Position numbers and translations under genes: made by a program. Positions 1,774 to 47,057 of a stretch of DNA of 64,000 nt are shown here, piece by piece; positions within the stretch are counted from its first letter, which is position 1; every line of letters begins with the position of its first letter. The DNA is taken from assembly GCA_039621445.1 (NCBI GenBank), contig CP154954.1, positions 30,632,395-30,696,394 of the forward strand. The letters are read 5' to 3'. The notes beneath the pieces are model-generated. The model was not told the DNA's origin. It saw only the letters and a list, made by a program, of their open reading frames with translations, and did no database searches. This DNA comes from Euglena gracilis (Eukaryota).

Positions 1774-2870
1774 TGTTTCACACCCGTGCTGCCATGTCCC
1801 ACGGCAGTACTGGGGTGAAGCGGATACCCCCGCCCCGGGCCAGTTTCCGGCGTAGGATCGTTTTTTGGCTCCTCGAGCCGACTTGTGTCGGAAATTTTTT
1901 CCCATTCTGCACTCCCCTGTGGCCGAAACTGGGCCATCATTTACAAGGAGAAACTTCCCAGTGGACCCTCCCCGACCCCTGAGGGGGGTGCCACTGGGAT
2001 CTCCAAGGGGGGTGACTTTGGGGTTTCAACCCGTCCCTGCTCAGTTGAACCGGTGAGAGCCAACACCCCCCCTGGGTGTCATTTCTCACAGTTTCTGGGC
2101 CAAAAAGGGGGTTTTGGGGTGACATTTGGCCAGTGGTTGCCTGAGTTGAAGAGTCCCACCCCCGTGCCCCTTTTCCCACAGATGAGGTGGGGGGAAGACA
2201 AACCTCACCTTCTTCAAATGATTGATTGTTCTCAATTGGACTTTCCATTTGCAAATGTAATTCCAACACTTGAATTCACAATGATAACTGTTTGTAATTG
2301 CAACAATTGACAATGCCAAGGGGTAAAAAGAGGAAAACCCTGTGAGAGGAAAACGATTTTGATGCCCCTGATGGGCAGTTAAAATTAGGATTGAGTGCGC
2401 TGATTCCTAAGCGCTCTCAGATCCCAAATCCTGGCCCATTGCACCACAATCAACCAACCCAAGTCAAAATCAAGGTTTCCACCCTTGATTTTGATAAATT
2501 ATGCTGAATTCCATCATTATTGAGCTTTGCAAACCCCTGCAAAAGCTCCAGGAACTCAGGCGCCAATCTCTTAAAATTCCGTTCCAAGCGCTTGCAAGCG
2601 CTCTCACCAAATCCAACATTTTCCCTTAAAACCAAAGGAAAAATGCAGAAAAGGCTTAAAAACATGCTAAATAGACCCAAAATCACCCTTTAGGAATACC
2701 TAGCATCACTCAATCTCTCTCCTTGCACAACCAAACCATGGGCGCCCTAGGAGAGGGAATTTTAATTAAAATCTTTAGAAAGCCTTAAAATTAGAGCTAA
2801 ACCGCCCTTAGAAAGGCCTTCTAAAAAGAAAAAACTCCGCCGCCCGGCGGTGGACCTCAAAAGGTCGTCT
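1774..2870 (-). repeat. 3' LTR of element B
   Basis: Direct repeat of 13725-14821; about 22 substitutions and no indels by manual comparison (~98%). Confidence 0.95.
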
Positions 2871-2881
2871 CTCCCTTCCTT
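2871..2881 (-). promoter_or_regulatory. Polypurine tract of element B
   Basis: AAGGAAGGGAG on the minus strand immediately before the 3' LTR. Confidence 0.75.
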
Positions 2882-3227
2882 GCGACGAAAGTCGGGGGTG
2901 TCACCCCCCCTCCTTCTCGCTTTCTTTGGGGTGGGAATGAAAGACACTTTGAATTTTTTCAACGCAAATGCGATAACATTGTTCGGCAATGTGCATAAGT
3001 GGCGTAACGGTATGGAGGAATCTATAACCCATAGATCCCATTCCACCACACCGAGCTCCCCCCCACGGTTCTCACCACCGTGAAAAGAAATGGGGGTCCA
3101 ACACCACTCAAACAAAATCCTTTCTTGAATAGATAAACATCAGCCCCCCCCCCCAAGGTATTCCCAACCGTGAAGGGAATGCAGGGTCCATTATCACCAA
3201 AAATCCTTTCGGTGATAGATGAAAATC

Positions 3228-3460
3228 AGCCCCCCCCCCCCCGAGGGGAAGGCCTTGGGCAAAAGCTTGCCCCCCCCCCGGCGAGAGGTGGGCTTGACTT
3301 GCCCCCCCCTGAGGGGAAGGACTTGGGGAAAAGATTGCCCCCCCCCCGGCGAGAGGTGGGCTTCACTTGCCCCCCCCCCCCGAGGGTAAAGCCTTGGGCA
3401 ACCGCCCCCCCCCCCGGGCAAAGGGAGGGCTTGCCTTTCCCCCCCCCGGCGGGGAGGTTG
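3228..3460. repeat. Degenerate tandem repeat (~65-70 bp unit, 3-4 copies) in the 3' UTR of B
   Basis: Recurring (C)n-gagggXaagg-cttggg...(C)n-ggcgagaggtgggctt units. Confidence 0.75.
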
Positions 3461-4733
3461 AACAACTCACCTCTTTTTTTTGGATGAAATAACATAGCCC
3501 CCTCCCTGATCAAGCCGACCGGGGTTTCGGGCCTCACTTGCCCAAAGGTGGGGGTATGATAAAATAGCCAATCAAACCGATTGGACAGGGACCCCCCCCA
3601 CGAGTACCACCGACCCGTGGGAAGGGAAATGAGGGTGGAACCACCCATTCAAAGCCCACCGCCTTGAATCTGGGTCGCCCCCCCCCCATTGAAACAAATT
3701 CACAGATTCCTCTTTCGGGACAGGGAGGGTGCAAACAAAGAGTGTGCGGTGTCGAGGTCAGGATAGAGAGTGGCATGGGTAGGTCGATAAAATTACGATC
3801 TCCACTCGTTCACTCCACATGCTCCTCGTAGACCAATACCAGAAAGCAACTCCTTGAAATAGTTTGAACTCCGTCTTCAGTTCATCCAATTCAGAGTCCC
3901 AGACTTCAAATTGATAATACGTCCTGAGTAGGTGAACAAAACGGAGAGTGATGGTTGCCAGAGCCAAACGCCTCGTCGAAGTTCGGGGTGTTGGGCTTCG
4001 GCGTCTTCCTTGGGTGCCGGTTTGCCTCCCCTTAGTGTGGTGGCAAACCATGCACACCGTTATGGGGGGGGTTCCTTCCCCCACTTGAAAATTTGGCACT
4101 TAGCCCAGCCAAACCGACAGGTCAATCTCAAAACCACATTGTCAATTACCCCCCTCCTCCAATACTTGGAGAAGGTTGTCAAGAGAACAAACCCACGGTT
4201 GTGCTTCCGGTGGTTTGTCCTCTTTAAGAAATTTTGGTGAAACTTCCAATCCGGAATCCACCCACAACAACATAAACAAAACGGGTGGCAATCATGCACT
4301 CTTTCAACGTTTTGCTTTTGTTGTTGTTGGCAATATCCCTTCCTGTTCCAGGGTGGGATCTTTTGATTGGAAAACACCCACCCGTACAAAAAAATAAGGT
4401 TCCCGGCTAGTTTCCCCCTAGCCACGAGAATCCTTCATTCACCGTTGAAATCCTTTCACGGGAGTTCAATGGAAAATGGCAAAAAATCAACAGGGGCAAT
4501 GAAATGTCCTCGATTGCCCACACCAGCCTCACCCAAACCAGGGTGTAGTGGTGAATGAAAACCTCAGGGGGAGAAAAAAAAAATGAAACCAGTGACGAGG
4601 AAACTCCCGTCATTTATCCCAGGGCCTCAGCCCTGTGATGGGGTCCACCTGCATCTGTGAAGGGGCATAGAATGGGACCCCCTCCCCAGGCAACCACTCC
4701 AGGCCCTTTTTCACCTCTCCTTTCCCCCTTTTT

Positions 4734-4935
4734 TCAGGTTGCCGTTGCCTTTAAATCCTTAGAGACATCTAACGGCAACCCTTTTCCCAGGCAATACGTT
4801 ATTACGTCGCTATTGTACTCCTGGAAAAAATGTTCCACCGGTTCCCAATTCGCCTCCTCAATCCCTTTCCACTTCGTTAAGAAAAACATTTTTCCCTTAA
4901 CGAACTTGTGGTTTAGGATTTTATCCACTAACCAG
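4734..4935 (-). pseudogene. Integrase C-terminal chromodomain of B
   Basis: WLVDKILNHK...FLTKWKGIEEANWEP chromodomain pattern. Confidence 0.85.
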
Positions 4936-6183
4936 GTATCTGGGGCACCTTCCGCCTCAGGTACTGTCCGCCGGTGGAAAAACAGGGGGACAGGCTTATC
5001 AGATGTGGGGTCCTCCACATACACCTTTAAAGCCTTCCGATGGGCCTTCATAATACAGCCCGGTTTAACCTCAATTAGGTAGGAGTGAATTCCCCCCTTG
5101 CGGTAACCTTGCAAGGGCCCAACCAACGGGAATCCAATTTTGTGCCACTATCGGGGGGTCTCAGGTACGACACCAGATTCCCCACCTCCAATGGCTCCCA
5201 ACCGTCTAAACCACGGTTGGCCCAAGCACATTGTTTGGCATGCAAATTATTCATTTTGCCAGCCACTACCAAATCAATTTCTCTTTGCCGAGAGAAAAAT
5301 GATCTGGCATCTTCACAATCCCTTAACGGTTCATAAGGTAAACCACCCAATGAACGGTGTCGACCGAACAAGATTTGAAATGGGCTTAGGCCACTCTCCC
5401 CCGGCGTATCATGGATACGGTCTAGTGCTTGGGGGAGGGCTTCAACCCAATTCAACTTGTCCTCAACCTGAATTTTCTTAAGCCGTTCCATTATTTGTTG
5501 GCCAGCCCTCTCCGCCCTACCATTCGCCTGGTGATGGTAGGCCTGGGTATCCAACCGGAGTGACGATCCACACACACAACCGTGGAGTCGTAAGAATTCC
5601 CTTCCCACTCCACGAGAGGCATGCTAAACATGTCAAGGGCCACCGAATACATTACGGCTGGGGGTATGGGTGTAGATTCCACTAAACCCTTAAGACTCGC
5701 CGGCCTTCGGCACGCTTGGCAAGTCCCACAAAGGCCCATGACTCCTTTAGCAAAATCTCGAGCGAGTGAGGAATCAGCCCAATCATACCTATGGGACATG
5801 CATTCCCATAGCCTTGGGAATCCCACATGCCCTTGGTATGAGTGGTGATCCCGAATGAGTTTTTCTTGGAGAGATTTGGGCACACAAAGCCTCTCCTCGA
5901 AAAACATTTTGTCACCAAAAACCTTGACATTTTCAGGCCACGGCACCTTTGAATCCTGGGTAGCCTGAAAAATTGGTGACCAACAGGGACATTTTAAATA
6001 TTAGTAGTAGGCTTGCCTAATTCCCATCAAGGCACACATTGTCTGCCACCAACCGGCGACAAAATGTGAGCCTAGATCGGAAGTAATAATGGATGGGACA
6101 CCAAAAGGTCTCCAAGCATGCAACAGCATTTGCTTGGCTGCCTTGGCTCCCGTAAATCCTTTTGCTAGGTGGGGGATCGCCAC
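4936..6183 (-). pseudogene. Integrase of B (rearranged)
   Basis: HHSYQGH...CGTCQAC zinc finger, VALDMF, ITSDLGSHF, QANGRAER, WLGPC. Confidence 0.9.
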
Positions 6184-6422
6184 TCCTCCTTCCATGATAA
6201 ATCCCACACAGAACCAGGGGGGATGGGTGAGGAATCGGTTGTAGAAGTGGCTTCCCCCTCCTCACCACTCAAACCACCTGAAGACAACACAGGTGATTCT
6301 CGGTCTGCCCCAGGTACCTCAGTGGTAGCCGCAGCAGCAGGTTCAGGGGTTGGCGTCGTTGGTGAAGCTGGTATAGAAGTGGGTGTCAATGGAAAATGCT
6401 CCCCCCTTGGCTCTTGGACATC

Positions 6423-8290
6423 CTACACAAGACTTGTCTCATTCCCAAACTCGTCAACCCGAGTTGAGAATGAAACATGTTTTCCTTTTTCTCCCTTGGG
6501 GGTGGAGGTTGAACCCAACCCCTGGGGTTTTGTTCCTCCAAGTGGTTCTGACTTCCTATCCCCCGGTCGTATGCACCGTCCACCCGCGTCCCCGGACCCC
6601 GTGGTAGCACCACCCCGTGTGGTGACTCCACGAATGTATGTGTTGGCTGTGGTTGGTTGGTCCACCAACCGTAGCCACATACATTCTGTTTCTTCCAATT
6701 TTTCTGTTTGAATGATTTCCCTCATTTCCTCGGTGTCAAGGGCTGACCCATGCCTTGAAATGTCCTTCAAGGCTTGGGAGGCCTGGTAAGCACATCTTGA
6801 CAACAAATCGGCTATGGTATTCTCCAGCCCCGGGATATACCCAACCGACAGATCAAATTTTGATAATATTTGATGCCACCTAGCCCCTCTCTCAATGGGA
6901 CCACTTGGTGTGTCTAGAACCTCTCCAGCCCAAGATTCTAGAGCCTTGTGGTCCGTGAGAACCAGGACGGGCTGCAGCCCAATCCATGATTCCCACTTTT
7001 GTAAGGCTAGGATTATGGCATAAGTCTCCTGTTCCCTAGGTACCCAGTTTTTTTGGCTGCCCGTTAGCTTCCTACTCATGAAGGCGACAGGCACAGTTCG
7101 CTTGGCCCGTACGTCTTCTGGAGTAGGAGCCCTGTCCTCCCCAACCAATTGTTCAAGGGTGGCACCAACCGCATACTGGCTGGCATCCACTCTTAAAACA
7201 AATGGTTTGTCTGGCTTAACGTGTTGTAAAATTAATTCACTGCACAACAGTGATTTAATTTTTTCAAATGCCTCAATGTCGGATGGTTGCCAAGAAATCC
7301 TTTTCTTGGAACCCTTCTTGCCGTCCACTCGTGAAACTTTGAGCTTATCCTGAAGGCAAGCGACAATGTGGGCATAATCCTTCACATAGGAGCTGTAATA
7401 ATTTGTGAACCCCAAAAAGGCACGTAGACTCGTGATTGTTTGGGGTAGCTCCCATTTTTCAATGGCCATTAGCTTTCCAGGGGATGGTTTTCTCACCCCA
7501 CCACCCAGAACATGGCCACAAAACTCAACCTCTTTTACGAAAAGACGGCATTTTCTTTTGTCGGCCACAAATCTGTCTTTTCGTAAAACTTCAAGGACTC
7601 TTCGCAAATCCTTGTCATGTGCTGCGAGTAAATCCTCACCAGGACCCACTCGAGTTCCAATCAAAATATCGTCGATGTAAGCATCAGCCACGTCCCCCAC
7701 CGGGAAGAGGCGATCCTCCATCATTTGCTGAAAGTTCTGGCTTGCGTTCGTTAGACCCATCACATTAACCCTCCACTGAAAAAGACCGAGGGTGGTACTA
7801 CAACATGTGATGGGCAGGCTTTCCGGGTCCAACGGCTGCTGGTGGAAAGCCTGCCGTAAGTCCAAGATGGAAAACATCATGTTTCCACCTTGTTTTACCA
7901 GGAGGTCTTCAATTACAGGAAGGGGGTAGGACACACGCCTAGTTTGACTGTTAGGCCCCCGCATGTCTACCACTCCCCTCCATTCACCTCCTTTTTCGGC
8001 ACTACAAATGTTACGGACAGCCATTCCGAAACTGTTCCCTTGGGTAATCGCTCAACAAATTTCCGGTCCCACCATTCCTGTGTGACCTTTTTGTGAGCTT
8101 CAAATCTTTCACCATGTAATACAAAAGGTTTTTGCCTTGTGGGTACAGCCCCCTCCTTCAGAGGAATCTGGGCGTAACCATAAGGTCCCTGAACGGGAGG
8201 GTCGGGGGGTACCTCCGTACCCAACACCTCTCCTTCAAAATCCTGAAAATTTTTATCCCGAAATGCTACCACCCTGGGGTCTTCCTTCTC
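6423..8290 (-). pseudogene. pol: Reverse transcriptase-RNase H of B
   Basis: LDLRQAFHQ, VMGLTNA, YIDD, LRAFLG, VDASQYAVG, LTDHKAL; frameshift near 8000. Confidence 0.95.
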
Positions 8291-8599
8291 ACCCGAGTCG
8301 CGAGCCTGGATTATGGCATTCACTGCCTTGTCCTCGGCTGGCGATTCGGTGAGATGCTTGGCTATGGTATGCAATTCCTTCTTGCCAAGGAATTTTGGTT
8401 GCATATCAAAGCCTTGCAAGGGTAGGTGCAAATTCATTTTTTGCAGGTCCAACCACACCTTTTCATTTTCAAGGGACTCCGTGGTTGGTGCGTTTTCAGG
8501 GGATTCTCCGAAGTCAGAAACCACAACCCCAATTCTTTTTTGTGAATTGTGTTTTTTCTTCCCCTTATGGGATTTCCGTTTCTGATTTCTTGTATCCCA

Positions 8600-9000
8600 C
8601 CCGTACAAGAAAGTCAGATTAGGATTGTCAAAAACCAAAGCCTTATGGTGTGGGAACACACCCAAACCATGTTCGGCTAACCATGGAAATGATAATATAG
8701 CATCTACCTCAATATCCGCGAGGTAGAATTCCCCTTCGAGGTACAAGGCCTGGGTGCCCCCCTGCCCCGTACCCCTGCATTGAAACCCCAACTCCAACTT
8801 AATACACTGGTCGCCCCCCAAAACACATTGGCCATTGGCAGCCACCAGCCGAATAGGCATTCGTGGTGACCTGGCCAAATGTTTTGGAACAATGGACCTT
8901 TTGACCAGGTTCACCTGGGCTCCCGTGTCCACCAAAACTTTGAACTGCCTGGTAACACCGTTAGGGAGATACGTCTGTGATGACATCAAAAGTTGCAGCT
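8600..9000 (-). pseudogene. Aspartic protease of B
   Basis: VLVDTGAQVNL and DAILSFPWL motifs. Confidence 0.9.
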
Positions 9001-9139
9001 CGTTTTCAATGGGCAACACCTGATTAACCTTCAAGGTGTTGGCCAAATGACAACAGCGGTCTGGAATTTCCCATTCCTCAAAATCCTGGGAATTTTGGGA
9101 AATTTCTTTGGGCTGTCCCCCCAGAATATCCCCAGCACT

Positions 9140-9731
9140 TAGGAGATAATCAATCACCAGGGGGGGTATTCTTCCTTTTTGTCGGGGGGTAAACTTCATT
9201 TTTCTGCCCCCCAACAATTCACGGTGCCGGAGTTGCCCATTGTCCCCCATCACCAGGTTAGGACACGATTCGCCATCACACAACACCGACCGTAATTGTG
9301 AAATGGCTGGGCAGCACCAGAAGCGTGTGGGCTTTTTATAACCCCAATCTGAAAACTGACAATAATCAATGTCGATATAGGGCAGGTTTTTCACCACCTC
9401 CCTATTTCGCAAAAGACCAGTGCGGGGGTTCTCCACCCACCACAACTTTGGCTGAAAATAATTTATAATTTCCAGGGCTTTCTCCACCAGGGCATCCGCC
9501 TGGGAGAAATCCCTTGGCCTGGGGTTATAAGCCGTGGAATAAATATTACAGGGGGGACTAGCGGCAATAACCTCAAAAAATCCAACCGGTATCGCCTGTA
9601 GTCCCAGGTCAAAATGTCTGTGTGGGGGTGGAAGTCCGTCCAAGGAGCATTTTCGGTTGACAAAACTTCATACCCCCGTTCTGCCAATCGCCTCCCCACT
9701 GAACCTGTGCCAGCAAATAAATTTAATGCCT
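9140..9731 (-). pseudogene. DNA cytosine-C5 methyltransferase domain of B (frameshifted)
   Basis: Motif I ALNLFAGTGS, motif IV ASPPC, motif VI ENP, YKKPTRFW. Confidence 0.88.
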
Positions 9732-10008
9732 GAGGTCGCTGAGCTGATGGTGGGGAGTTGGGCTGTGGCAGGTTTGTATGCAAAATGGGAACACTTGAAC
9801 ATTTCCCTTCCCTCCAGAAGTAACGAGTCCGATTCAAAGATCTGGGGGGCTGATCCAAAGAATGTTTTTCACCACACCCTGAATCAGCCATAAAATCCTT
9901 GTACAGCCCAGGTTTTTGAATCAGAAATGTTTGCACTGTTTTCCTCACAGGGGGGAGAGACACGGCCATGTGCAGCCCCCCCCTTCTCACACTGCCCCTG
10001 GCCCCCTC

Positions 10009-13000
10009 CTATTGGGCCCCAGGGGAAGAAGAGGTGGGCCCACCCCCCTTTGACCATGCACCCCCCTTGCCTGAGGAATTTCGCTGAGAGGCTGGCTGCC
10101 CTTTACCCTTGGGCTGCCCCTTGCCTTTTCCATTATTTTGCCAAAATCCCTTAGATTTAGCAAGGGCCTCACTCAGCGGTTTATCGCATTCACAAAAATA
10201 ATGCCCGCACTCCCCACAGTTGAAGCATGGATATGGGGACCTGCCCCTACCCGATGCCTGCGTGGTCCAGGTCTGCCCCCCCTTGCCTTGCCGGGCTGGG
10301 GGTGCTGGACGTTGGGTTCGCGACCATGAAGCTGCACCTGGCCGCGAAGACGAAGAAGGGGACCTGCCCCGCTGGGCTGGCTGGGCTGGCCCCTTATCTC
10401 CCTTTGGAGCTGGCTGTGGGGCAGATTTTGAGGTGTGACCCTGCCCCCCAGCCGCTGGTGTTGACACAGAGGTTGGGGACACCGGGGGGTTTGGCCTTTT
10501 TCCAACACCTGTATTTTCCCTGAGCCTTTTGTTGTCGATTTACTGAATAATCTGGGAAAATGGTGCTGATTCAAAGCCAAAGCCTGCTTCTCCCGAAGAG
10601 CTAACTTGCCCTCGGAAAAAGCAAACATTTCCTCAACGGTCATTAGTTGTTACACCAATTCAGCGTTGAGGAAATTTTCCATTCCCTGCAATTTCCTTCC
10701 ATTTAGGGCTGTTAATTTCAGTGCCTCCTCCGAAGAACTGAAAAAAATAAGGCAAATGGCACCAGGGTTTTTGATAACCACCTTCCGTGGATCAATCCCC
10801 CCAGTGATCTGGCTCACACTCCTTTTAATCCCATCCACCGTGGGATTTGGTATCCCTGTTAACCTGACAATGGGTTGTTTACGGGCTCGGTTATCTTCCT
10901 CTTCTATGCAAAACTTGCTTAAAAAAGGAGGAATTCTTTCCAAAAATAATCGCCGAGCCTCCCCGGCTGTGGCATCCTTAACATGGTGCCAGGCACTGCA
11001 AAATTTAATCCAAAATTCTTGCAGATCAGCCCGGGTAACTTTTCCTTCGTTTACCATAGTTACCTCCTGCCATATTTTCCGAGCTGTTAGCCCCTTACTC
11101 GAGGCATAACGGTTCTGGAACTGAGCCAATATGGTGGGGTAACTTAATTTAGCTCCATTCAACCGATAGAGCCTGATTTCCTCCCTTAATCTGGGTCCTA
11201 AACATGCCTGAAAAACCTGCAGCTTTTGCAAATCAGAATACGGTTTCCCTGATGTCAACCTGTCCCAGTAAAGATTCCAATCTACTTCAAAATCTTGCCA
11301 GTAAATGCTGCCCGATTCATCAAAATAGGGCTTAGCACCTCTCTGCAAAATTTCAAAAGCTACTGGGTCACCGATAAAAGGATAACCCAACCCGTTACCT
11401 GGGTTGGCTGCAGCCCCCCCCTGTCCCGATGGGCCTAATCGAGAAAGCAGGGGCTGCAGAAACATGTGGTGGGGACACACAATGACACAGAAGAAACCAC
11501 TGCCGTGTCTTGCGTGTCCTCCAAAACAAATCCCCCCTCAATCACTAAGGGAGGGGAAATGTTTGAACCTGCAGATTTATTTTGAGAAATAATCTGATCT
11601 GAAAAAGATGGGTCAGCACTGGGCACCGTGCTGGCCAGTGAGCTGGAAGGCTGCCCCAGGGGCTGCTGCTGTCCAGCCGACGGCAGGCTCAGCCCCATTG
11701 GCAGCCCGTGAGCAGGCTGCGGCTGGCCTGCTGGCTGGCCAGGCTGCTGGGCTAGCTGGACGACGGGCTGCTGGGCCAGCTGCTGCCCAGGCTGTGGCAG
11801 CCCAACTGGGTGTAGGGGCTGCTGGCTGCCCTGCCGCAGCCACCACATGTCAGAAATTTTTTGCAAAACCCCTTTCGGTTCTGCAGTTGGGTGTACGGGT
11901 CCATTTTTTTTGTAAATCCTGCAGCACTTTCTGTAACTCGAAAGTGTTCCCCCCAACTTTTGCAAGTCCCTGCCTTAATTCCTCCACCAGCCCACCAAAT
12001 TTATTCTCCTGGGAAAAACTCTGCTGATAAACACTCTGAAAATTCTGCTGACAATCCGTCAACAGTTTTTGCATTTCTGAGTGTCGTTTCTCTACTTCAT
12101 CTGAAATATTCTGGTGCACTTTTTGAATACCCCCACCAAAACCATGGAGGGCTGTATTCATCGCTGAATTTTGTTCACCCAGCTGGCGAACATAATCAGC
12201 GAACTGATGGAGCTGCTGAGCCTGGTCCTGTACCGTACTACGCAGCGATACCAGGTCAGCCTGAACTTCAATGATCTTGGCAGCGACAACGGCCAGCTCC
12301 TGGAGAGTTTCTGCCTCCCCCACCTGAGCTGGCTGGGCGGCTTTAAAATTCTCAGCAAACCGCTGAAAATTTTCAAGCACGACATCCTTAATTGGTAAGG
12401 CCGCCACCTGACTTTGCACTTGCTTCAAAATTTCCTGTGGCAGGCTGTCCAAAATTCGTAAAATTTCCTGCCTCAGGGCCAAAAACTGATCACGGCTCGA
12501 AGAAAACTGCTGGGCCAGTTTTTCCTCAAACCTTTTTTCCTGACTGACAAAAAGTTCAAGTGCCTGTGCGTCAATTTTTGGCACAGAAATTTGCACCTGG
12601 GCCTCACATATTTTCTCAAAACGTTGAAAAAGCTGCAGGTAGTCAGCCCTGGCCGTTTCTTGGATTCGTGCACCCATGTGCTCCACAGGTGGATGTCGAC
12701 TGCGGGGGGTTGTTGCTGCTGCTGCTGCTGCAGAACCCACTCTTTGTTGGCTTTTTCCAAAGCCAAAACCCGAAATGTCAGGTGCTGCACAGTCCACTGG
12801 AGGTCTCTGTTACTTTGTAAAAATTGCCCCCAGGGGTCTTGAAATCCCTGATTTTGTGAATCCCCCCTGGGGGTGGCTTCAGAACTTTCATAGGCTGGGG
12901 GTTGGACCTCCTCCTCATCCCCCTCGATGAAAATATGAGGAGGCTGGGGGGCTGCAGCAGCTGCTGGCTGACCGTGATCAACCTCACGGTGCAGCCGTTT

Positions 13001-13711
13001 TTGCTGAACTTCATCACTGCCTGGTGATGAAGCTGGAGTTCGGGGTCGTCGAGTAGAAGTGGAACTGGGCTGGTCCTTCGGGTTTTCCTCCGCCCCCTCC
13101 ACTTCTGCTCTGACCCGTTCGCTGCTGTCCCAGTTATTATTATTGTTTAAGCCCAGCACATTGACCTGTGCTTGCTTTTCAAAGAAAACTGGGCTGGGGT
13201 TATCACCCCCCTGCCCTGCCGAGGCACTTCCCGTTTCCTTCGCCAGCCCATCTACCTGGGATGGTTGGGAAAACTGCAAAAGTGCCACCAGCTCTTGGGC
13301 TGGTGTTGAAGAAACTGGTTGAGCTGGAGGCAAAGGCAATGCAAAAGCGGGTAATGATGGCAGATTCCCTAAATTTTGCACCCATGAAAAGTCTGGGAGA
13401 GGTTGCAATTCAGGCAGCACAAAACCGTACCCCATACTTTGCAAAGGCAAAACCCCTGAAAAGGGCTCTGGAAAACACGGTTGGTTGGAAATGACAACCT
13501 GGCCATCCCCACCCTGAAGTTCCAACATCTGCCCCATATTTGTGGGGGTTCTGAGTTCAGCCAAACTGGTTTCGGGTCTCAATTCCCTGTGCCCCGAAAC
13601 TCCAATCGTCAGATTTGCCATCTGAGATTGGGCCATTGGCTGATTATCAACGAAAACATTCTGAGCAGGGATTTCCAACCCAAAACTTCCGACTGAAGGC
13701 TGAAGGAAAAA
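10009..13711 (-). pseudogene. gag: gag of B (several frameshifts)
   Basis: Coiled-coil N-terminus, capsid-like ORF 10650-11480, CCHC knuckle CFNCGECGHYFCEC, TAG at 10009-10011. Confidence 0.85.
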
Positions 13712-13724
13712 CCTCTGCTTACCA
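13712..13724 (-). promoter_or_regulatory. Primer binding site of B
   Basis: TGGTAAGCAGAGG directly after the LTR-terminal CA; resembles an initiator-Met tRNA PBS with one extra A. Confidence 0.85.
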
Positions 13725-14821
13725 TGTTTCACACCCGTGCTGCCATGTCCCACGGCAGTACTGGGGTGAAGCGGATACCCCCGCCCCGGGCCAGTTTCCG
13801 GCGTAGGATCGTTTTTTGGCCCCTCGAGCCGACTTGTGTCGGAAATTTTTTCCCATTCTGCACCCCCCTGTGGCCGAAACTGGGCCATCATTTACAAGGA
13901 GAAACTTCCCAGTGGACCCTCCCCGACCCCTGAGGGGGGTGCCACTGAGATCTACAAGGGGGGTGACTTTGGGGTTTCAACCCGTCCCTGCTCAGTTGAA
14001 CCGGTGAGAGCCAACACCCCCCCTGGGTGTCATTTCTCACAGTTTCTGGGCCAAAAAGGGGGTTTTGGGGTGACATTTGGCCAGTGGTTGCCTGAGTTGA
14101 AGAGTCCCACCCCCGTGCCCCTTTTCCCACAGATGAGGTGGGGGGAAGACAAACCTCACCTTCTTCAAATGATTGATTGTTCTCAATTGGACTTTCCATT
14201 TGCAAATGTAATTCCATCACTTGAATTCACAATGATAATTGTTTGTAATTGCAACAATTGACAAGGCCAAGGGGTAAAAAGAGGAAAACCCTGTGAGAGG
14301 AAAATGATTTTAATGCCCCTGATGGGCAGTTAAAATTAGGATTGAGTGCGCTGATTCCTAAGCGCTCTCAGATCCCAAATCCTAGCCCATTGCACCAAAA
14401 TCAACCAACCCAAGTCAAAATCAAGGTTTCCACCCTTGATTTTGATAAATTATGCTGAATTCCATCATTATTGAGCTTTGCAAACCCCTGAAAAAGCTCC
14501 AGGAACTCAGGCGCCAATCTGTTAAAATTTCGTTCCAAGCGCTTGCAAGTGCTCTCACCAAATCCAACATTTTCCCTTAAAACCAAAGGAAAAATGCAGA
14601 AAAGGCTCAAAAACATGCTAAATAGACCCAAAATCACCCTTTGGGAATACCTAGCATCACTCAATCTCTCTCCTTGCACAACCAAACCATGGGCGCCTTA
14701 GGAGAGGGAATTTTAATTGAAATCTTTAGAAAGCCTTAAAATTAGAGCTAAACCGCCCTTACAAAGGCCTTCTAAAAAGAAAAAACTCCGCCGCCCGGCG
14801 GTCGACCTCAAAAGGTCGTCA
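13725..14821 (-). repeat. 5' LTR of element B
   Basis: TG...CA termini; copy of 1774-2870. Confidence 0.95.
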
Positions 14822-17800
14822 CTGGGCCGGCCGTCAAATCCCAACGCCAGCGTGAGCGTGCGGGCAATCTCCCAAGAGCCCCGCACGCCCCCCATACCCA
14901 GCAAGCCCCAAATCTCCCAAGAAGGGGAGAGACCGTGCCCTGAAGCACACGGTCAAGGCGGGGCCCATCAGATTTTGACAAACAACTACTGGCCCGTGCT
15001 ACAGAAGAAGTCCCGTCGTTTCGAGCAACCGTCTGCGGCGCGACCGGTCTCGTCTGCGCAGTCCTCGCCCCCCGCCAAGCCAGCAGCGTCCGTGCCATCG
15101 TCTACGCACAATCGTGCCACCGCGACGCCCCCAGTCCAGCAGCAAGAAAAGCGAGCACCGCGCCAGACCGCACCAAGCCGGACGACGCTTCCCCCGCCAT
15201 CAGCATCGCCGTCAGCGGCACCACGCTCCGCACCCGCAGCAACCAGCGCACCGCTCCCCCCCCATGGCGCACCGTCCTCCCGGGCGGCACCGCAGCCGGC
15301 CGCATCGTCTCCGACAACCACGACGCCAAAGAGGTGGGCACTGGACCTTTTCTGTGGAGCGGGTTCGGTGAAGCGGGCGCTGGAGAAGCTCGGCTACTCC
15401 GTCGTCTCGGTGGACGCCGACCCGCGGTGAAAGGCGGACAAGACGGTGGACGTGCGGCGCTGGCGGTACTGGGAGGAGTACCGGCCCGGCGACTTCCAGC
15501 TGGTCGCCGCCTCGCCGCCGTGCACCGAGTACTCCAGCGCGATGACGACCACGAGGCGGCGGCTGCGGAAGGCCGACTTCCTGGTCCGTAAGACGAAGGT
15601 GATCATCGCCTACCTGCGGCCGTCGCTGTGGTCGCTGGAGAATCCCCGCTATGGGAACCTCCGCCACCGCAAGGTCGTTGAGGACATGCAGTACGTCGAT
15701 GTGGACCACTGCATGTTCGAGGCGTGGGGCTATCGCAAGCCCACACGCTTCTGGATCGCGGACTCCATGGCCCCCATGCAGGACATCGTGGGCCACGGCC
15801 AGTGCGAGAACATCGTGGAGGAGCAAGATGGACGGCGACATCACCGACGGCAGCTGGGTGGGGCATCCAAGCAGCGCGGTACCCGAGAGCAGGCGTATCG
15901 CATTCCCGAAGGTGTCGTCCGATACCTGTGCGAGGGCACCCCACTAACTCGCCAAGCAGCCGTGCCGCCCAGCGCGATACCGCCGTCGCCGGCACCCGCA
16001 CCCGCGTCCGCCACCGCACCGCCAAGCCGGACGGCGCTGCCCCCGCAAGCAGCGGCGCGGTCCCAAGCCCCGCGCCAACGACCGCCATCGTGCACCCGCC
16101 AAGCATCGTGCACCCCCGCCGAGCCGCACAACGATCCACCCGCCGAGCCCGTCACCACCGCCGCCGACGAGCCCCACCCCCCGCGGAAGGTCCACAAGGT
16201 CACTGTCCGTCCGTGGCAGTACCGCCCCAGCCGGCCCTTCCAGGTGGGCCGCATGGAGAGGCGGGGCGGCAGCTATCAGCTGATGCTGGACGTGGTCATC
16301 GAGATCGACGGCCGGGAGGAGAAGGCGAAGGCCTTCATCGACACGGGGGCGCAGACGTCGCTGATCCGTCGGGACTTGTTCCCGAACGGATGTTTCCGCC
16401 GCAGCGAGCGGCCGCTGCTGCTGCGGACCGTGAACGGCGACCTGCTGGCAGGCGGCAGCAACGAGGCGGACGTCCTCCTGGTGTTCAACGCGAGGAGTGA
16501 AGAAGAGAGGAGTGGAGGAGTGAAGAGGTGGCACAGCCAGATCACCGTCCGTGACGGTGATATAGGGTGTGACCTGATTCTGGGTTACCCCTGGCTGAAG
16601 GAGCACAGGCTGGATGTGCAACCCTGGCGGGATGCACTCCAGCTCCACGACGACCCCCGATGGGTAGTCGCCGGCACCGAAGCAAGCGAGATCGCAGCGC
16701 TAAGCACACGCACCCACGCGACCGTCCGAGCCCGCAGCCCGTCGCCGTTGCCCCGCACGCCGTCCGAAGTGGAGGAGGAGATGGAGGCCGAGGTGAGGAA
16801 GATGAGGCTCACCGTCCGGGTTAACGGCCCCGACGGAGACGAGGGGGACGAGGCCCTGGACGCCGAGGAGGAGGCAATGGTGGCCAAGGTGCTGATCGAC
16901 GCGGCCAAGGAGGCGTAGGAAGTCCGTGGGGTGGTCACGGCCGAGGCGGAGGAGCAGCATCCACTGGCCGTCCAGCTGCGCGCCGAGGTGCTCAAGGGGT
17001 TCGAGGGCCGCGTCTTCTGCGACCGCGTGCACCCCGATCCGCCGCCCCGAGGCCAGCACGGGATGGCGGTGCTGCGCCTCAAGCCAAACGCCCAGCCGGT
17101 GGTGGGGAGGGTCATCCACCTGAAGGGCGAGCGGCTGGAGGCGTTGCGGGAGATAGAGGAGGAGTGCCGCCGCGATCGGAAGGTGGAGCGGGGCCGCGGC
17201 CCGTGGCGGGCGGCCGCCTTCCTGTTTCGGAAGAAGAACGGGAAGTGGAGGATGGTGTGTCACTACGCGGTGACGAACCTGCAGATAATGGCGGACAGCT
17301 ACCCCTTGCCCTTGACGGAGGAGATCGTGGCGGAGCAGGCGAAGTGTACCCTCTTCAGCACCATCGACTTGCGGGACGCGTTCCACCAGGTGGCCTTGGC
17401 GGAGGAGAGCCGACCGGTGACGAACGTCCATCTGCTGGGTGGGCTGTGGCAGTGGCGAGTGGTCCCGCTGGGGATCAACGTCGGGCCCGCCCTCCTGCAG
17501 CGGGACATCAACGCCACCTGCGCGGCGGTGAAGGCACACTCCCGCCCGTACTTCGACGACATCATCGTCAGTACGCGGCAGGGAGCGGAGGAGACGGACG
17601 AGGAGTTCTACCAGAAGCACGCCCGAGACGTCCGTGTGACGTTGCTGGCCTTGGAGAAGGACAGATAGGTCAGCGACATCCGCAAGGTCAAGCTCTTCAT
17701 GAGGCCGGTCGAGTTCGTGGGGCATGTCCTGGGGCACGGCAGGAGGGCGCCGGCCCCTGGCAAACTGTAGGCGGTGCAGCACTGGCAGCTGCCGCCGACG

Positions 17801-20380
17801 GTCAGCAGTCTCCGCGCGTTTCTCGGTGTCTGCAATTACTATGCGGGCTACGTGAGACTGTACGCGGAGCTGGCGGCGTCGTTTCAGGAGAAGCTGAAGT
17901 TGCCGAGGGAGCTGACCAAGGCGGGATCCAAGCACCCAGTGGTGTGGACGGAGCAGGAGAAGGAGGCGTTCGACAAGCTGAAGAAGGCCCTCATCGCCGA
18001 CCTGGAGCTGTACCACATCGATCCAGCCAAGCCGTTCGTCCTGCGCACCGACGCGTCGGACTACGCCATCGGAGCGGTGCTGGAGCAGTTCCCGAAGATC
18101 GACGGCGTGCCGCGGGTGGAGGACCTGCGGCCAGGGGCCTCCGTCTCGGTGGCCTTCATGTCCCGGAAGCTCACCGAGGGGCAGCGTCTTCGGTGGGATG
18201 TCCGGGACAAGGAGACGTATGCCGTGGTGGCCGCCCTCGACGAGTGGGCGGGCTTCCTGCTGGGCAACGAGATCCTCGGCCTGACCGACCACCGCAACCT
18301 GGAGTCGTGGTACAAGGAGTACGTCGCCGGAGTGGGCCCGCAGGGGAGGCGGGCCAGATGGCATGCGAAGCTCATTGAGTTCCGCATCACCGTGGTGCAC
18401 GTCCCCGGCGAGACCAACGTGGTGGGCGATGCCATGTCCCGCTGGGCCTACCCGGCCTCACAAGGCTGGCGTGACACCTCGTGGCACGGCACCGAGGCCG
18501 ACACAAAGGAGATGAAGGCCCACATCCTGGAGGAGAAGCTGCGCGAGAAGTCCACCCCAAAGGCGGTGCATCCCGAGGACGAGGAGACCAAGGCGGAGCA
18601 GGTGGAGAGGTCAACCCTGAAGGAGGGGAGAGAGCTGGCCGTCATCCAGCTGATCCGGCTCCAGTCGTTAGCCGCGGTTCCGTCAGCGTCCCACGTCGCT
18701 GTCACCACGCGCAGCCGCCTCGACACGCAGCGCAACGCCCGAGACGCCCCAGCAGACGCCCTGCACGATACGCGATCCGAGCATCCACGCGAGATGCACC
18801 CGTCAGCCTCGTCTCCCGCGAGCGCAGCAGTCCCACAGTCGGCATCGTCTGCGGCAGTCACACCGTCTGCGTCGTGCATCGCATCACCAGCGTCCGTGCC
18901 AGCACCATCGTCCAACGCGCCATCGCCAGCCCCATCACCAGCACCGCAGTCCACCGCACCGCAGTCCATCGCACTGCCCGCGGCGCCCACAGCCGGTGTG
19001 TCATCACCGGCCATGCCCGTCCCAGCGTCCGCAGCCGGTGTGCCGTCACTGGCCGCGTCAGTCCCGTCTGCAGCACCCGCAGCAGGTGTGCCGTCAACCG
19101 CTGATCCCGTGCCCCCGCAGCCTGACCAGGACATCAACGTCTTCGACATGGACTGGAGCAAGGCGTATGCGGTGTGCCCGCGCTGGAAGCCCGTCTGGGA
19201 CCAGGCCCACAACGGCCCGGGCTGGCCCAGCGGGTTCCAGCCGGTGGATGGGCGGCTCGTCTCGGCGGGGAGGTGGTGTGTGCCGAGCGGGCTGCTGGCG
19301 GAGGTGCTGAGGGAGCAGCACTCGGTCTCCGGCCACATTGGCGGGGACCGGCTGGTGGAGGAGGCCGAGCGCACCTACGTCTTCGCGGACCGGATGGAGG
19401 CGGCGAAGGTGGCCGGCGGGCTGCCGCGGACGTGCCCGGTGTGCCAGGCCACCGAGCACCCGCACCAGCCGCTGCGGCTGAAGGTCTGCCCGACGCCCGT
19501 CCCGCCGTACGTCATGGCGTCGGTGGCCATCGACCTCTTCGTGATGCCGGAGGTGGACTTCGAGGGGCAGCTGTACAACGTGTTCGCCGCCTGCGTCGAT
19601 CGCCACAGTGGGTGGGTCGTGGCCACGGCCCACCACACGCGCGGCCTCACCGCCGCCACCGTGGCCAAGGCGATGTACCGGGGGTGGTGGTCGCCGTACG
19701 GGCTGCCCAGGGTGATCACGAGTGATCGCGGGCCGCATTTTGCTTGTGCGTGGTGGCGCAGCATGTGCGGCCTGCACGGCATCCACCACGCCTACGCCCA
19801 GGCGTACCACCACGCGGCGAACGGGCGGGCGGAGTCCCTCCGTGCGCAGCTGCAGAAGCGGATCCGGAGCGAGAAGGCCGAGGCCCCGATCACCTGGGTG
19901 GAGTCCCTGCCCAGGGCAGTGCAGAAGCTGAACGACTCCAAGGCGCAGCACGGCCTGAGTCCGTACGAGGTGCTGTATGGACGGCATCGGGGGACTGGTG
20001 GCGTACCGTACAAGGCCCCGGTCATGGTGGAGGATGCCGTGTCGTTCTTCGAGAGACAGAAGGCCGTGGACCAGAAGGTCGCCGAACCGGAGCAGGAAGG
20101 ACCTCGAGGAGTTCGCCAAGGGAGACCTCGTCTGGTACCTCCGGCCCCCGAGGCGGCCGGGCCAGAAGCTCGAGAGCTACTGGATTGGCCCAGCCCGGCT
20201 CACCGCGCGCCGTGGCGAGCACTCGTACGAGCTGGAGCTGGAGGAGGGCCGCCGCCAAGAGGCCCACCGCTGCCAGCTGAAGGCCTGCCGCGATGACACG
20301 CGGTTGTGGGGCCCGCCTAAGATGTTCGCCTACCGGCAAGCCAGACCGCAGGAAGACGTGCACATCCGGGAGTGGACGGC
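14822..20380 (+). pseudogene. pol: pol of element A: C5-MTase-PR-RT-RH-INT (scattered stops, truncated at the chromodomain start)
   Basis: FIDTGAQ, IDLRDAFHQ, YFDD, TDASDYAIG, HSVSGH..CPVC, ITSDRGPHF, ANGRAE, WIGP. Confidence 0.95.
15331..15930 (+). pseudogene. DNA cytosine-C5 methyltransferase domain of A
   Basis: WALDLFCGAGS, ASPPCTEYS, LENPR, YRKPTRFW; one in-frame TGA at 15428. Confidence 0.9.
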
Positions 20381-21260
20381 CAGCCAGGCCCCCCCAGGGG
20401 GAACCGAAGCCACCCCCCCCCCCAGGGGGAACCGAAGCCAGCCAGTCCCCCCCACCCAGGGGGAACCGAAGCACCCCCCCCCCAGGGGAACCGAAGCCAG
20501 CCAGGCCCCCCCCAGGGGGAACCGAAGCCCCCCCCCCCCCCCCCCCAGGGGGAACCGAAACCAGCCAGCCCCCCCCCCAGGGGGAACCTAAGCAAGCCCC
20601 CCCCCCAGGGGGCACCGAACAGCCAAAGCCCCCAGGGGGCACCAGCAAGACGAGAGGCCCCAGAGGGACACCGAGCCAAGGCCCCCCAGAGGGCCACCGA
20701 GAGGCCCCAGAGGACCACCGAGCCAGGACCCCCCCCCAGGGGGCCCCAGAGGCACCCGAGCCAGGACCCCCCTCCCGGGGGCCCAGAGGCCACAAACCCA
20801 AGACCGCCCCCCCCCGGGGGCCCAGAGGCCACCAACCAAGGCCGCCCCCCCCCAGGGGGCCCAGAGATCACGACCAAAGACCCCCCACACACCAAGGCAG
20901 AAGACCCCACGGGGACCCCCCGGGCAAAAAAACAGCCCCCCGGACCCCCCCGAACAAAACAAAAAAAAAGCCCCCCGGACCCCCCCCGAAAAAAAAAGCG
21001 CCCCCCCAAGGGGCGCCCACACCCACCGGAGCCCCAGAGCGCTAAGCGAGAACCGAAGAGGGCGCAAGGAGCACCCCCCCCCCAGAGCGCCACAGGAGAA
21101 CCGAGCAAGCGCAAGGGAGAGAAAGGCACGCCCACCCCCCGCCCAGCCAGCCGAAGGAAGCCAGGCAGGGGGCAAATGAGGCGAGCCGAAGAGACCCCCC
21201 AGGCACCAGAAAGACCCAAGGGAGCCCAAGGTACCGCCCCCCCCCCCAACCAGCCGGGGA
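20380..21260 (+). repeat. GC-rich degenerate minisatellite
   Basis: Units like ccccccagggggaaccgaagcc(agccagg) with variable homopolymer lengths. Confidence 0.9.
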
Positions 21261-45704: not shown

Positions 45705-46066
45705 CCCCGGGCAGTGAAAACCACAACCCAGCTTCTAAACCCGACCCTTCCACCCGTAACCTCCAATCCACCAATCATCTTACCACAAACGAAATGACCG
45801 GGAGCTGAGCTTGGAGTGAAGTCAAATGGGCTGGCCGAGCCCAGCATGATGGATTGAGGGAGCGAGAAACCAAGACCCCCCGGAGCCAAGGAGAGCAGGC
45901 ACGGCCCGGAGGCGGGCGAAGGAGGTATGAGGGGGAAGCAAATCTCCTCCCATTCCTTTCGCGTGCACATCCCTCCCCATTCCACATGCCAAGCCAACAC
46001 TATTATGATTTTTTGAGCGAGAATAGGCGGGCCTCAAACAAAAAGTAGGCCAGAAAATTTCCCAGG

Positions 46067-46665
46067 GCATTTGACCTCTTTTCTGGGAAAAATTCAGTGG
46101 GAAATTAATTGTGAGAAAAGGGTTATGAGGTGATTTTGGTGGACATCAACCCAGGTTTTCACCCAACCCATCCCGTGGACATCCTAGAGTGGGAGTATCG
46201 TGTATACCCCCCTGGATATTTCCAAGTCATAACGGCTAGTGTGCCTTGCACGGAGTATAGCCGTGATAAGACAGTGGGAGAAAGAAATTTGGAGTGGGAA
46301 GACCAAATTGTGACAAAAACTTTGGAAATTGTCGAATATTTTCAGCCCAATTTATGGTGGATTGAAAATCCCCGAACGGGACTTTTTCCAAAAAGGCATT
46401 GTGTGCGAAAATTCAATTTCATCGATGTGGATTATTGTCAATTTTCAGATTGTGGATATCAAAAGCCTACCCGCATTTGGGGGAGTGAAAATCTGTTGAG
46501 TTTGAAGGACAAACTTTGTGATGGGAAAACCTGCCCCCATTTGATTGTCAGTGAGGGGGGTGGTTTAGTACTCAAAGAACAATTGGGAAGAAACGGAATG
46601 AGGGTGAGCACTCAACAAAAATGGAGGGTACCTGAAAAAATGGTCATGTACCTTCTTTCGGCCCT
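46067..46665 (+). pseudogene. DNA cytosine-C5 methyltransferase domain of C
   Basis: AFDLFSG, TASVPCTEYS, IENPRTG, YQKPTRIW; two stops in the N-terminal part. Confidence 0.88.
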
Positions 46666-46689
46666 TGATTTTAAGGAGGAAAAGTTTTC

Positions 46690-47040
46690 CTTTAAGCATG
46701 AAGATTATGCCGTTCGGAATTCATTTGTGCAAATGATTGAGGAGAAATGTAAAAGGAGGGCCGAGGTGGATTGTTTTGCTTCTACCCAAAATTCTCAGTG
46801 CACATCATATTTGACCGAGAAGGGAAATGCTTTGGCGGTACCATGGGGAGGGGGGGGGTACGGTTTGGTTAAAACCCCCCTGGACATTGTGGCCAAAGGT
46901 GGCAATGAAGTTGCAAAAGGACCCTTGTGATGCCACTTGCATCTTACCTGATTGGAGCAAAGGTTGGGTAAGGGAACTTGTTCAGAAGGCACCAAAAAAA
47001 GTTGTATTTTCCACCCGGAACCAAGCTTTTTGAGGTGGAT
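46690..47040 (+). pseudogene. Dam-like DNA N6-adenine methyltransferase domain of C
   Basis: EDY...VDCFASTQNSQC...NALAVPW, then a frameshift in a G-run, then VWLKPPW...CILPDW..W. Colinear with the DIRS MTases in this window. Confidence 0.75.
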
Positions 47041-47057
47041 GGGAAATCAATGGGGGG

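Follow-up and report, generated by a model that had tools for sequence, protein, structure and literature searches.

A compact, virus-related C5-cytosine methyltransferase probably leads the Pol polyprotein of dead Ty3/Gypsy elements in Euglena gracilis

Why would a retrotransposon carry a cytosine methyltransferase at the head of the polyprotein with which it replicates? The question is raised by a 64-kb stretch of Euglena gracilis DNA (contig CP154954.1, positions 30,632,395 to 30,696,394; hereafter the window), in which pol of a dead Ty3/Gypsy long terminal repeat (LTR) retrotransposon, which we refer to as element A, occupies positions 14822-20380. An earlier note on this DNA had claimed that four Gypsy elements, A to D, carry a methyltransferase of about 200 amino acids (aa) ahead of their pol enzymes, and tblastn searches of the window with the methyltransferase stretch and the whole Pol of A found it in all four (A, 14822-20380, plus strand; B, 1774-14821, minus strand; C, approximately 44128-50556, plus strand; D, 64000-58169, minus strand). 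Based on the analyses below, we consider it likely that the Pol of these dead elements was led by a compact C5-cytosine methyltransferase that is related to viral proteins and was maintained by selection; the enzyme would have marked the element's own complementary DNA (cDNA) or insertions.

In element A, the frame at 14717-20296 on the plus strand encodes methyltransferase, protease, reverse transcriptase (RT), RNase H and integrase in one polyprotein, and the order of its Pfam matches (RVT_1, RT_RNaseH, Integrase_H2C2, rve) is that of a Ty3/Gypsy Pol with a DDE integrase. The parts of the element are as follows.

1..1773, plus strand: upstream, gag-like part of element A, 65% G+C like the pol of A (three-frame translation)
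14822..15331, plus strand: open leader of the pol frame before the methyltransferase, rich in Pro, Ser and Ala (translation)
15332..15940, plus strand: compact C5-methyltransferase domain (PF00145, and a profile of the family at E 1.5e-54)
16283..16598, plus strand: aspartyl protease (weak Pfam match and a DTGA motif)
17153..18383, plus strand: RT and RNase H (Pfam, tblastn), with the stops at 17666 and 17768 inside
19280..20300, plus strand: integrase (zinc-binding region and rve core, rve E 3.9e-10) and the start of an SH3-like region
20379..20625, plus strand: 3' tandem repeats with C-runs and G-runs (Tandem Repeats Finder (TRF), self-BLAST)

The Pfam evidence was strong for RT and RNase H (RVT_1 E 1.2e-16, RT_RNaseH_2 E 6.2e-21, RT_RNaseH E 2.2e-20) and weak for the protease (gag-asp_proteas E 0.0044, Peptidase_A3B E 0.099). 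A chromodomain was not found in A, where the C-terminal query from the metagenome relative P0132 matched at its residues 4-78 only (20079-20300, tblastn). The frame is interrupted by four in-frame stops, at 15428, 16916, 17666 and 17768, and changes near 20100. An alternative genetic code as the explanation of these stops was ruled out, since TGA and TAG are mixed among them and the methyltransferase-protease stretch of D is free of stops. Among the differing letters listed for contigs aligned to 14822-20380, none was at any of the four stop positions. By composition the GC-rich tail of A extends to about 21750, and LTRs of A were not located within the window.

The methyltransferases of the other three elements are located at the following positions.

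9768-9523 and 9583-9143, minus strand: methyltransferase of element B, split by a frameshift (tblastn, translation, family profile)
46046..46660, plus strand: methyltransferase of element C (tblastn, family profile E 1.2e-57)
63386..64000, minus strand: methyltransferase of element D, open over 205 codons (translation, PF00145, structure model)

Compared with the A domain, the D copy is 57% identical (64000-63389, E 1.6e-79), the C copy 39% (46067-46654, E 5e-42) and the two pieces of B 45% (9583-9143, E 7e-40) and 35% (9768-9523, E 1.7e-7); the family profile matched the C-terminal and N-terminal parts of B with E-values of 1.2e-42 and 1e-11, respectively. In B, C and D, similarity to the RT, RNase H and integrase of A lies on the same strand, downstream of the methyltransferase (tblastn). 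The motifs that the earlier note had listed (FxG, PC, ENP and Y(R/K/Q)KPTR(F/I)W) are present in all four copies: FCGAGS, PPC, ENP and YRKPTRFW in A; FAGTGS (in the separate frame piece), PPC, ENP and YKKPTRFW in B; FSGKNS, a degenerate motif I, with VPC, ENP and YQKPTRIW in C; and FSGTGS, PPC, ENP and YRKPTRFW in D. The observation is confirmed, well outside what chance would produce. All four elements are broken by stops and frame changes, with the methyltransferase-protease stretch of D still open. The A domain has an in-frame stop at 15428-15430 and an alteration at one of four conserved Cys/His positions, that of C has three in-frame stops and a degenerate conserved His as well as its degenerate motif I, and that of D is truncated by the end of the window about 2 residues ahead of the motif I strand.

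The division into GC-rich A and D and AT-richer B and C, also made in that note, was borne out by G+C contents of 67-68% and 48-51%, respectively; the two lineages belong to one family in one genome and differ by about 20 points in G+C. The placement of the methyltransferase immediately before the protease stood only in part. It describes D, in which about 25 aa separate the two domains, and does not describe A, in which they are separated by a Pro/Ala-rich linker of about 115 aa, or C, in which the remnant of a DAM-type N6-adenine methyltransferase lies between the C5 methyltransferase and the expected protease site and the protease itself was not detected (no Pfam match at E<=0.01).

Is the domain a C5-cytosine methyltransferase? 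Enzymes of this class are recognized by motif I (FxGxG), motif IV (PC, with the catalytic Cys), motif VI (an ENV-type motif with its Glu) and motif VIII (QxRxR). The window domain, of about 200 aa, has FxGxGS at motif I, PC at motif IV, ENP at motif VI and a motif VIII-like K-x-T-R-x-W, and it ends in a YRIPExL helix that occupies the place of motifs IX and X. In the family alignment FSGT, the Cys of PC, ENP, DYC, K-x-T-R-x-W, two further Cys and a His, and YRIPE are invariant or nearly so. Approximately 45 residues with a Cys-Cys-Cys-His set stand in place of the usual target-recognition domain. The Cys3His residues (C127, C155, C159 and H172 in D) are invariant or nearly so in retroelement and viral members, with one Cys altered in A and the His altered in C. 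To us the set looks like a putative zinc site, and it may form a zinc-binding mini recognition module.

Even so, the case that can be made from sequence for a C5 methyltransferase is thin, and several points count against it. The matches of A (19.1 bits, E 9.4e-4) and D (19.7 bits, E 6.3e-4) to PF00145 are below its gathering threshold of 22 bits, and the alignment covers only profile positions 1-118 of 324. There was no PF00145 match for C or for the B frame piece 9140-9600 (the main methyltransferase frame of B was not scanned), and no NCBIfam match for D or for P0121, a relative 60% identical to D that begins 10 residues ahead of the domain. Motif VIII has a single Arg (K-x-T-R) where the canonical motif has a pair, neither motif IX nor the target-recognition domain can be clearly made out, and the zinc site is drawn from conservation only. 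A family profile built from 69 sequences matched PDB sequences weakly, the best being DNMT2 at E 0.0064 over motifs I-IV only, followed by another tRNA methyltransferase, M.HaeIII (E 0.89) and METTL21D, and no DNMT3 chain was matched at E<=1. The match to a C5-methyltransferase profile on which the earlier note had made its claim depend was, however, obtained with relatives of the window copies: P0132 (22.4 bits), P0145 (26.4), P0024 (26.5) and P0042 (33.6) are all above the PF00145 threshold.

The predicted structure made the assignment much firmer. An AlphaFold2 (AF2) model of the 205 residues of D, computed with an alignment of relatives as input, had a pLDDT of 92.8 and a pTM of 0.89. The Foldseek matches listed for this model in the PDB are all C5 DNA methyltransferases, the best being DNMT3B (E 1.3e-7, probability 1.00), with DNMT3B and DNMT3A chains from E 1.3e-7 to 4e-7 and with the prophage protein 3g7u, DIM2, MET1 and DNMT1 also present. 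In VIA-align comparisons, 194 of the 205 residues aligned to DNMT3A (Z 13.9, chain residues 634-904), 198 to M.HhaI (Z 13.8, chain residues 12-320, root-mean-square deviation 3.6), and M.HaeIII scored Z 13.1. As the ranges aligned in DNMT3A and M.HhaI show, the model spans all of the catalytic domain, beginning at motif I and ending with the C-terminal helix; at the level of these ranges, not of individual residues, the YRIPExL helix falls on the C-terminal end in both enzymes. The model thus points clearly to a real C5-cytosine methyltransferase fold in which the target-recognition region is minimal. With the canonical enzymes (M.HhaI, M.HaeIII, DNMT3A and DNMT3B) the domain shares the catalytic fold from end to end and motifs I, IV and VI. 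It differs from them in length (about 200 aa against 270-330 aa), in the near absence of the small and target-recognition domains, in having ENP for ENV and the single Arg in motif VIII, and in a sequence identity of only 13-19%.

The match to DNMT2, a tRNA(Cyt38) methyltransferase, as the best among solved structures by sequence raises the alternative that the domain is a DNMT2-type RNA 5-methylcytosine methyltransferase acting on the tRNA primer or on the genomic RNA of the element. The absence of a target-recognition domain would leave the choice of substrate open, and for SymbioLINE-Dnmt, a retrotransposon-borne DNMT of Symbiodiniaceae, methylation of RNA or cDNA was allowed in the text of the 2018 paper (PMC5890265). 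We nevertheless regard an RNA enzyme as unlikely. The DNMT2 match is marginal and confined to motifs I-IV, DNA enzymes score equally or higher in the structural comparisons (DNMT3A and M.HhaI), and relatives of the domain are encoded on contigs of DNA viruses beside a second DNA methylase, a setting typical of DNA modification.

Was the domain maintained for its catalytic activity? In a clade of 67 retroelement sequences (the retro clade), the catalytic Cys is present in 67/67, the Glu, Asn and Pro of ENP in 66/67, 66/67 and 67/67, the Lys, Thr and Arg of motif VIII each in 67/67, and the Phe and Gly of motif I in all 61 sequences that cover them. When A was compared with D by the NG86 method (own script), the ratio of nonsynonymous to synonymous divergence (dN/dS) was 0.26 for the methyltransferase (201 codons), 0.245 for RT (248 codons) and 0.23 for the integrase (259 codons). 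These values are rough, as dS was 1.0-1.5 and near saturation, and the B-C comparison was saturated; both points detract from the argument for selection. The protease value for A-D was unusable, with only 10 aligned codons. Among 16 elements with both domains, mean pairwise identity was 0.47 for the methyltransferase and 0.49 for RT, and the distances of the two domains were correlated (Spearman rho 0.70, a value reached in 0 of 2000 permutations). Together, these data support the view that the methyltransferase was retained as carefully as the replication enzymes, under purifying selection, and with a dN/dS well away from 1 they agree with the long-term selection proposed in the earlier note.

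The same residues bear on a second alternative, in which the domain is a non-catalytic module for binding DNA or chromatin, for targeting, or for the folding of Pol. Such a role would suit a domain that is very small and has no recognizable target-recognition domain. For a pseudo-enzyme, however, the retention of the catalytic Cys, ENP, the motif I Gly and motif VIII in 66-67 of 67 sequences would be unexpected, and these residues also persist in all, or almost all, of the 169 viral and stand-alone sequences. We therefore give this alternative slightly less credence than an RNA enzyme and continue to prefer an active DNA cytosine methyltransferase in the ancestors of the window copies.

How general is the arrangement, and where did the domain come from? 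The D domain gave 189 near-length matches and 47 longer ones, and in a search of 1.84 billion entries the family profile matched 711 representative clusters at E<=1e-30, a number that rose to 3103 at 1e-10 and to 6218 at 1e-3. Intact, open polyproteins exist in metagenomes: P0132 (1628 aa), P0150 (1756 aa) and P0163 (1598 aa) each have the order methyltransferase, protease, RT, RNase H, integrase, chromodomain. In a survey of 63 proteins of the retro clade, excluding the window copies, the methyltransferase preceded the protease in 26 and followed it in 7, while 3 had methyltransferase and RT with no protease match and 27 were fragments with the methyltransferase only. The conserved position claimed in the earlier note is thus the prevailing one without being universal in the wider clade (26 against 7), which is a further point on the opposing side. 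Six arrangements included a DAM domain: methyltransferase-DAM-protease in two proteins (P0141 and P0154), methyltransferase-protease-DAM in one, protease-DAM-methyltransferase-RT-RNase H-integrase-chromodomain in one (P0145), protease-methyltransferase-RT-RNase H-DAM in one, and DAM-protease-methyltransferase in one. The EukProt protein P0167 has an integrase, a chromodomain and part of the methyltransferase family, followed by a DAM-like start.

Since elements in the window are nested in one another, with B lying within A, the methyltransferase might be suspected to be a fragment of a host or viral gene that came to lie beside pol by nested insertion or mis-assembly. An identical junction is nevertheless found in the four divergent copies of this one window, 33 metagenome proteins join the domain to a protease in one continuous chain (6 of them with RT as well) and 3 more join it to RT, and the methyltransferase and RT distances are correlated as described. 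We consider a chance juxtaposition of this kind extremely improbable, and the domain is treated in what follows as a genuine part of Pol.

The shorter matches were stand-alone proteins of about 195-290 aa, which are 31-43% identical to D over the full length and have the same motifs, size and Cys3His set. The viral stand-alone proteins score above the PF00145 threshold. To relate them to the Pol-borne copies, the domain was cut from 236 distinct sequences and a tree was built on 159 rows, comprising 4 window pieces (each covering at least 150 profile positions, which left out the N-terminal piece of B), 37 sequences with protease or RT similarity, 43 unclassified sequences, and random picks of 40 of 80 stand-alone and 35 of 72 viral-contig proteins (IQ-TREE, LG+G4, quick search, SH-aLRT support only, unrooted). 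One branch (SH-aLRT 99) splits 67 retro rows from 92 stand-alone or viral rows. The 67 rows consist of 37 fused proteins, 25 fragments, the 4 window copies and one 189-aa fragment. Within them A, D and P0121 belong to a clade of 11 rows (support 97), P0006 is the partner of B, and C is in another subclade. The tree supports a single origin of the retroelement-borne domains; being unrooted, it gives no direction of transfer.

By these searches, the only detectable relatives outside retroelements are stand-alone proteins, mostly on uncultivated viral contigs. In IMG/VR 320 loci were confirmed, and the 80 of them that were kept lie on contigs of 4-32 kb, two with the names of giant-virus metagenome-assembled genomes (MAGs). 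The eight viral loci examined had 27-47% G+C, and the neighbours of viral relatives include D5/AEP primase-helicases and an N6/N4 DNA methylase. None of 10 open reading frames (ORFs) neighbouring viral relatives had a PHROGs match, and the Pfam models for Pox_A32 and for the capsid of nucleocytoplasmic large DNA viruses (NCLDV) had no match in two of five viral records, the capsid model being silent in the controls too. The closest ESM-Atlas clusters (213-219 aa) are labelled viral and named 'cytosine DNA methyltransferase (fragment)'. In prokaryotes at least 6 loci were confirmed among 185,579 species, with one genome each, all on MAG contigs. The earlier note had suggested a viral or a bacterial Dcm-like source. 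A viral source family is supported in part. Dcm offered no usable match: TIGR00675 (cut-off 100.65 bits) did not match D, P0024 or P0121 and gave the viral member P0042 25.2 bits.

What might such an enzyme do for the element? We propose that the methyltransferase would be synthesized at the N-terminus of Pol and would travel with the replication machinery, where it could modify cytosines of the element's own new cDNA or of a recent insertion. Copies would arrive already marked in a genome that is CpG-depleted and probably methylating, and the benefit might be escape from recognition as foreign DNA or a quiet settling in heterochromatin, with the chromodomain, where present, aiding the targeting. 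This reading is modelled on the proposal made for other retrotransposon DNMTs in the 2018 paper (PMC5890265) and on the assays of de novo CG methylation presented there.

The composition of the window is relevant to the host side of this proposal. CpG observed/expected ratios were 0.47-0.48 in B, 0.56 in C, 0.26 in the RT-bearing repeat at 51000-58100 and 0.69 at 22000-44000, and these values of 0.26-0.69 in the parts of the window that are not GC-rich suggest a host that methylates CpG. The ratios in A (0.98) and D (0.79) point the other way, as these elements are not CpG-depleted and are a poor fit with long-standing CpG self-methylation there. It also counts against the proposal that none of the four window copies is functional as it stands. 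Among the private changes listed that are towards A/T, 7 of 15 were at former CpG sites, a sample too small for a conclusion.

Approximately 6,900 contigs in each of two DNA runs had at least 90% likeness to the 5.5-kb stretch 14822-20380, so the A-type family appears to be very abundant, with many diverged copies. In one RNA library, a leaf-litter metatranscriptome, 35 contigs covered all 30 bins of the stretch at 90-99% likeness, which is not proof of transcription.

A more specific form of the proposal would hold that a minimal methyltransferase of the virus type, about 200 aa long and equipped with the Cys3His module, was captured once by chromovirus-like retrotransposons, came to head Pol in a large radiation widespread in the environment, methylates cDNA before or at integration, and is potentially a major writer of 5-methylcytosine in the genome of hosts that harbour thousands of copies. 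We put this form forward tentatively and think it rather doubtful in its entirety. If it were true, the enzyme would be among the smallest active members of the C5 class.

The remaining features of the window concern the layout of the four elements, beginning with B, which separates the two parts of A.

1774..14821, minus strand: whole of element B, a complete LTR retrotransposon of 13 kb that lies within A (LTR pair, target duplication)
8962-6690, minus strand: protease, RT and RNase H of B (tblastn)
6183-5261, minus strand: integrase of B (tblastn)
5147-4737, minus strand: SH3-like region and probable chromodomain of B (tblastn, Pfam Chromo)

The LTRs of B are a 1096-bp direct repeat (1774-2869 and 13725-14820) with 21 differences (98.1% identical), and the element is flanked by a 4-bp target-site duplication, CTGG, at 1770-1773 and 14822-14825. 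On its coding strand the LTRs end in TG...CA, a primer-binding site starting with TGG adjoins the 5' LTR and a purine tract adjoins the 3' LTR. Based on these four features, B is a complete element inserted in A, and the earlier note began A at 14822 because this is the first base past the right LTR of B. The LTRs look young, yet the coding region already has frameshifts and stops. The Pfam Chromo match of B (E 7.8e-5, 23 bits) is under the cut-off of 25.1; the C-termini of B and D match the chromodomain-bearing C-termini of P0132 and P0145 in tblastn with E 1e-30 to 5e-33. Upstream of gag, ORFs of B at 11853-13891 (minus strand) encode 472 aa and 319 aa, the latter coiled-coil-looking, with no convincing Pfam family.

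On either side of B, the gag-like region and pol of A are in the same frame, with a lone stop 11 codons before the insertion site. By coordinates, the pol frame has this stop at 1737-1739 and is open from there, across the insertion site, to 15428. A single stop between a gag-like region and pol could reflect expression by read-through, or mere decay.

Element C has the following additional features.

44128..45701, plus strand: gag-like ORFs of C (position, and likeness to the gag ORF of B by eye)
46670..47117, plus strand: remnant of a DAM-type N6-adenine methyltransferase in C (Pfam PF05869, tblastn)
47879-49414, plus strand: RT and RNase H of C, with stops and frame changes (tblastn)
49805-50556, plus strand: integrase of C, with stops and frame changes (tblastn)

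The DAM remnant, directly after the C5 methyltransferase, matched PF05869 with E 8.3e-4, below the cut-off, and the DAM region of P0145 in tblastn with E 3.4e-15. In A, B and D no DAM was found by tblastn with two DAM queries (E<=0.01), and A had no PF05869 match at E<=0.1. The gag-like ORFs of C matched no Pfam family, no SH3-like or chromodomain match was obtained for C by tblastn with the P0132 and P0145 C-termini, and self-BLAST of the window revealed no LTR pair for it. A coiled-coil-looking ORF of 147 aa lies upstream of its gag (43149-43589, plus strand), in the same position as those of B and likewise without a convincing Pfam family.

Element D, which runs off the end of the window, has these additional features.

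63334-62954, minus strand: protease of D, followed by frame changes (tblastn, translation)
62949-61942, minus strand: RT of D (tblastn)
61929-61150, minus strand: integrase of D (tblastn)
61122-60628, minus strand: SH3-like region and probable chromodomain of D (tblastn)
58581..59420, minus strand: 3' tandem repeats of D with C-runs and G-runs (TRF, self-BLAST)

LTRs of D were not located within the window. Tandem repeats between pol and the 3' end are present in B as well (3233-3455); in A, B and D alike they are built from C-runs about 7-11 long and from G-runs, with periods of 28-268 bp. A second RT-bearing repeat family occurs as inverted copies at 36432-39810 and 54566-57396, which are 77-79% identical and have weak RVT_1 matches; by its motifs the family looks DIRS-like. 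The ORFs of the window are transposon-like only, and an Rfam scan of the window found no family.

If the proposal is correct, a methyltransferase carried by the element itself reverses the usual picture of methylation as a weapon of the host against retrotransposons. The kinship with a compact family on viral contigs suggests that genes have passed between DNA viruses and retroelements. The catalytic unit is very small and, if active, would offer a useful minimal scaffold with which cytosine methylation could be studied or borrowed. There is also a practical consequence, in that screens using the PF00145 threshold miss the family, the window copies scoring under the cut-off.

How does the Pol-borne domain compare with known systems? 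Its nearest relatives outside retroelements, the compact viral C5 methyltransferases, are free-standing genes on DNA-virus contigs, unlike the domain embedded in Pol here. Orphan DNMTs, some of viral origin, were described in the text of a 2025 paper in Molecular Biology and Evolution (PMC12344493). For a C5 methyltransferase inside the Pol of an LTR retrotransposon, our literature search found only the 2018 paper of de Mendoza et al. and a 2026 preprint.

The main text of the 2018 paper describes SymbioLINE-Dnmt, SymbioDIRS-Dnmt3 and KnitGypsy-Dnmt3 and reports that retrotransposon DNMTs perform de novo CG methylation (PMC5890265). SymbioLINE-Dnmt and SymbioDIRS-Dnmt3 are, like the window copies, retrotransposon-borne C5 DNMTs with conserved catalytic residues; their backbones, as described there, are a LINE (with the DNMT in ORF1) or a DIRS element (with a tyrosine recombinase), whereas the elements here have an LTR backbone with a DDE integrase. 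No Symbiodinium-named protein was among the matches listed (120 of the 189 near-length ones, plus the longer ones), most of which are nameless. KnitGypsy-Dnmt3 of Klebsormidium nitens is closer in kind, as there too a Gypsy-type Pol contains a C5 DNMT that evolves under purifying selection (with Ka/Ks below 0.2 according to that paper, PMC5890265). It is described as a Dnmt3 relative with DIRS-like repeats, whereas B has ordinary LTRs. With respect to Dnmt3-type enzymes in general, the structural scores of DNMT3A and M.HhaI are tied, and the profile revealed no Dnmt3-specific affinity in sequence.

The closest system is that of the EpiLTRs, reported in May 2026 in a bioRxiv preprint (10.64898/2026.05.21.726589). 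Its main text applies the name to LTR elements of chromovirus type that combine DAM, DNMT and chromodomain, which were found in Euglena gracilis and Cymbomonas in a screen that began from DAM. A single clade, placed as sister to DNMT4, holds their DNMTs, which the preprint sets apart from those of 2018; in the Cymbomonas EpiLTR the DNMT is appended at the 3' end. The window elements resemble EpiLTRs, as described, in being Ty3/Gypsy and chromovirus-like, in having a cytosine DNMT in Pol and, for B and D, in having what is probably a chromodomain. The DAM plus DNMT toolkit is matched by C and by the relatives P0141, P0154, P0145 and P0131, and the layout of P0167 resembles the 3'-appended DNMT of the Cymbomonas element. 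The EpiLTR DNMT is likely to belong to the same family as the window methyltransferases, a comparison made from the preprint's description only. The novelty that the earlier note had attached to this locus is reduced accordingly, although part of it stands. In A, B and D the DAM of EpiLTRs is not detectable and the methyltransferase opens Pol, ahead of the protease, unlike the EpiLTR as described. The methyltransferase-first layout and the viral kinship were not found in the main text of either the 2018 paper or the 2026 preprint, and compact viral relatives are not mentioned in the main text of the latter. What the present elements add to these two reports, as far as their main texts go, is a DAM-less layout in which a methyltransferase with compact viral kin leads Pol.

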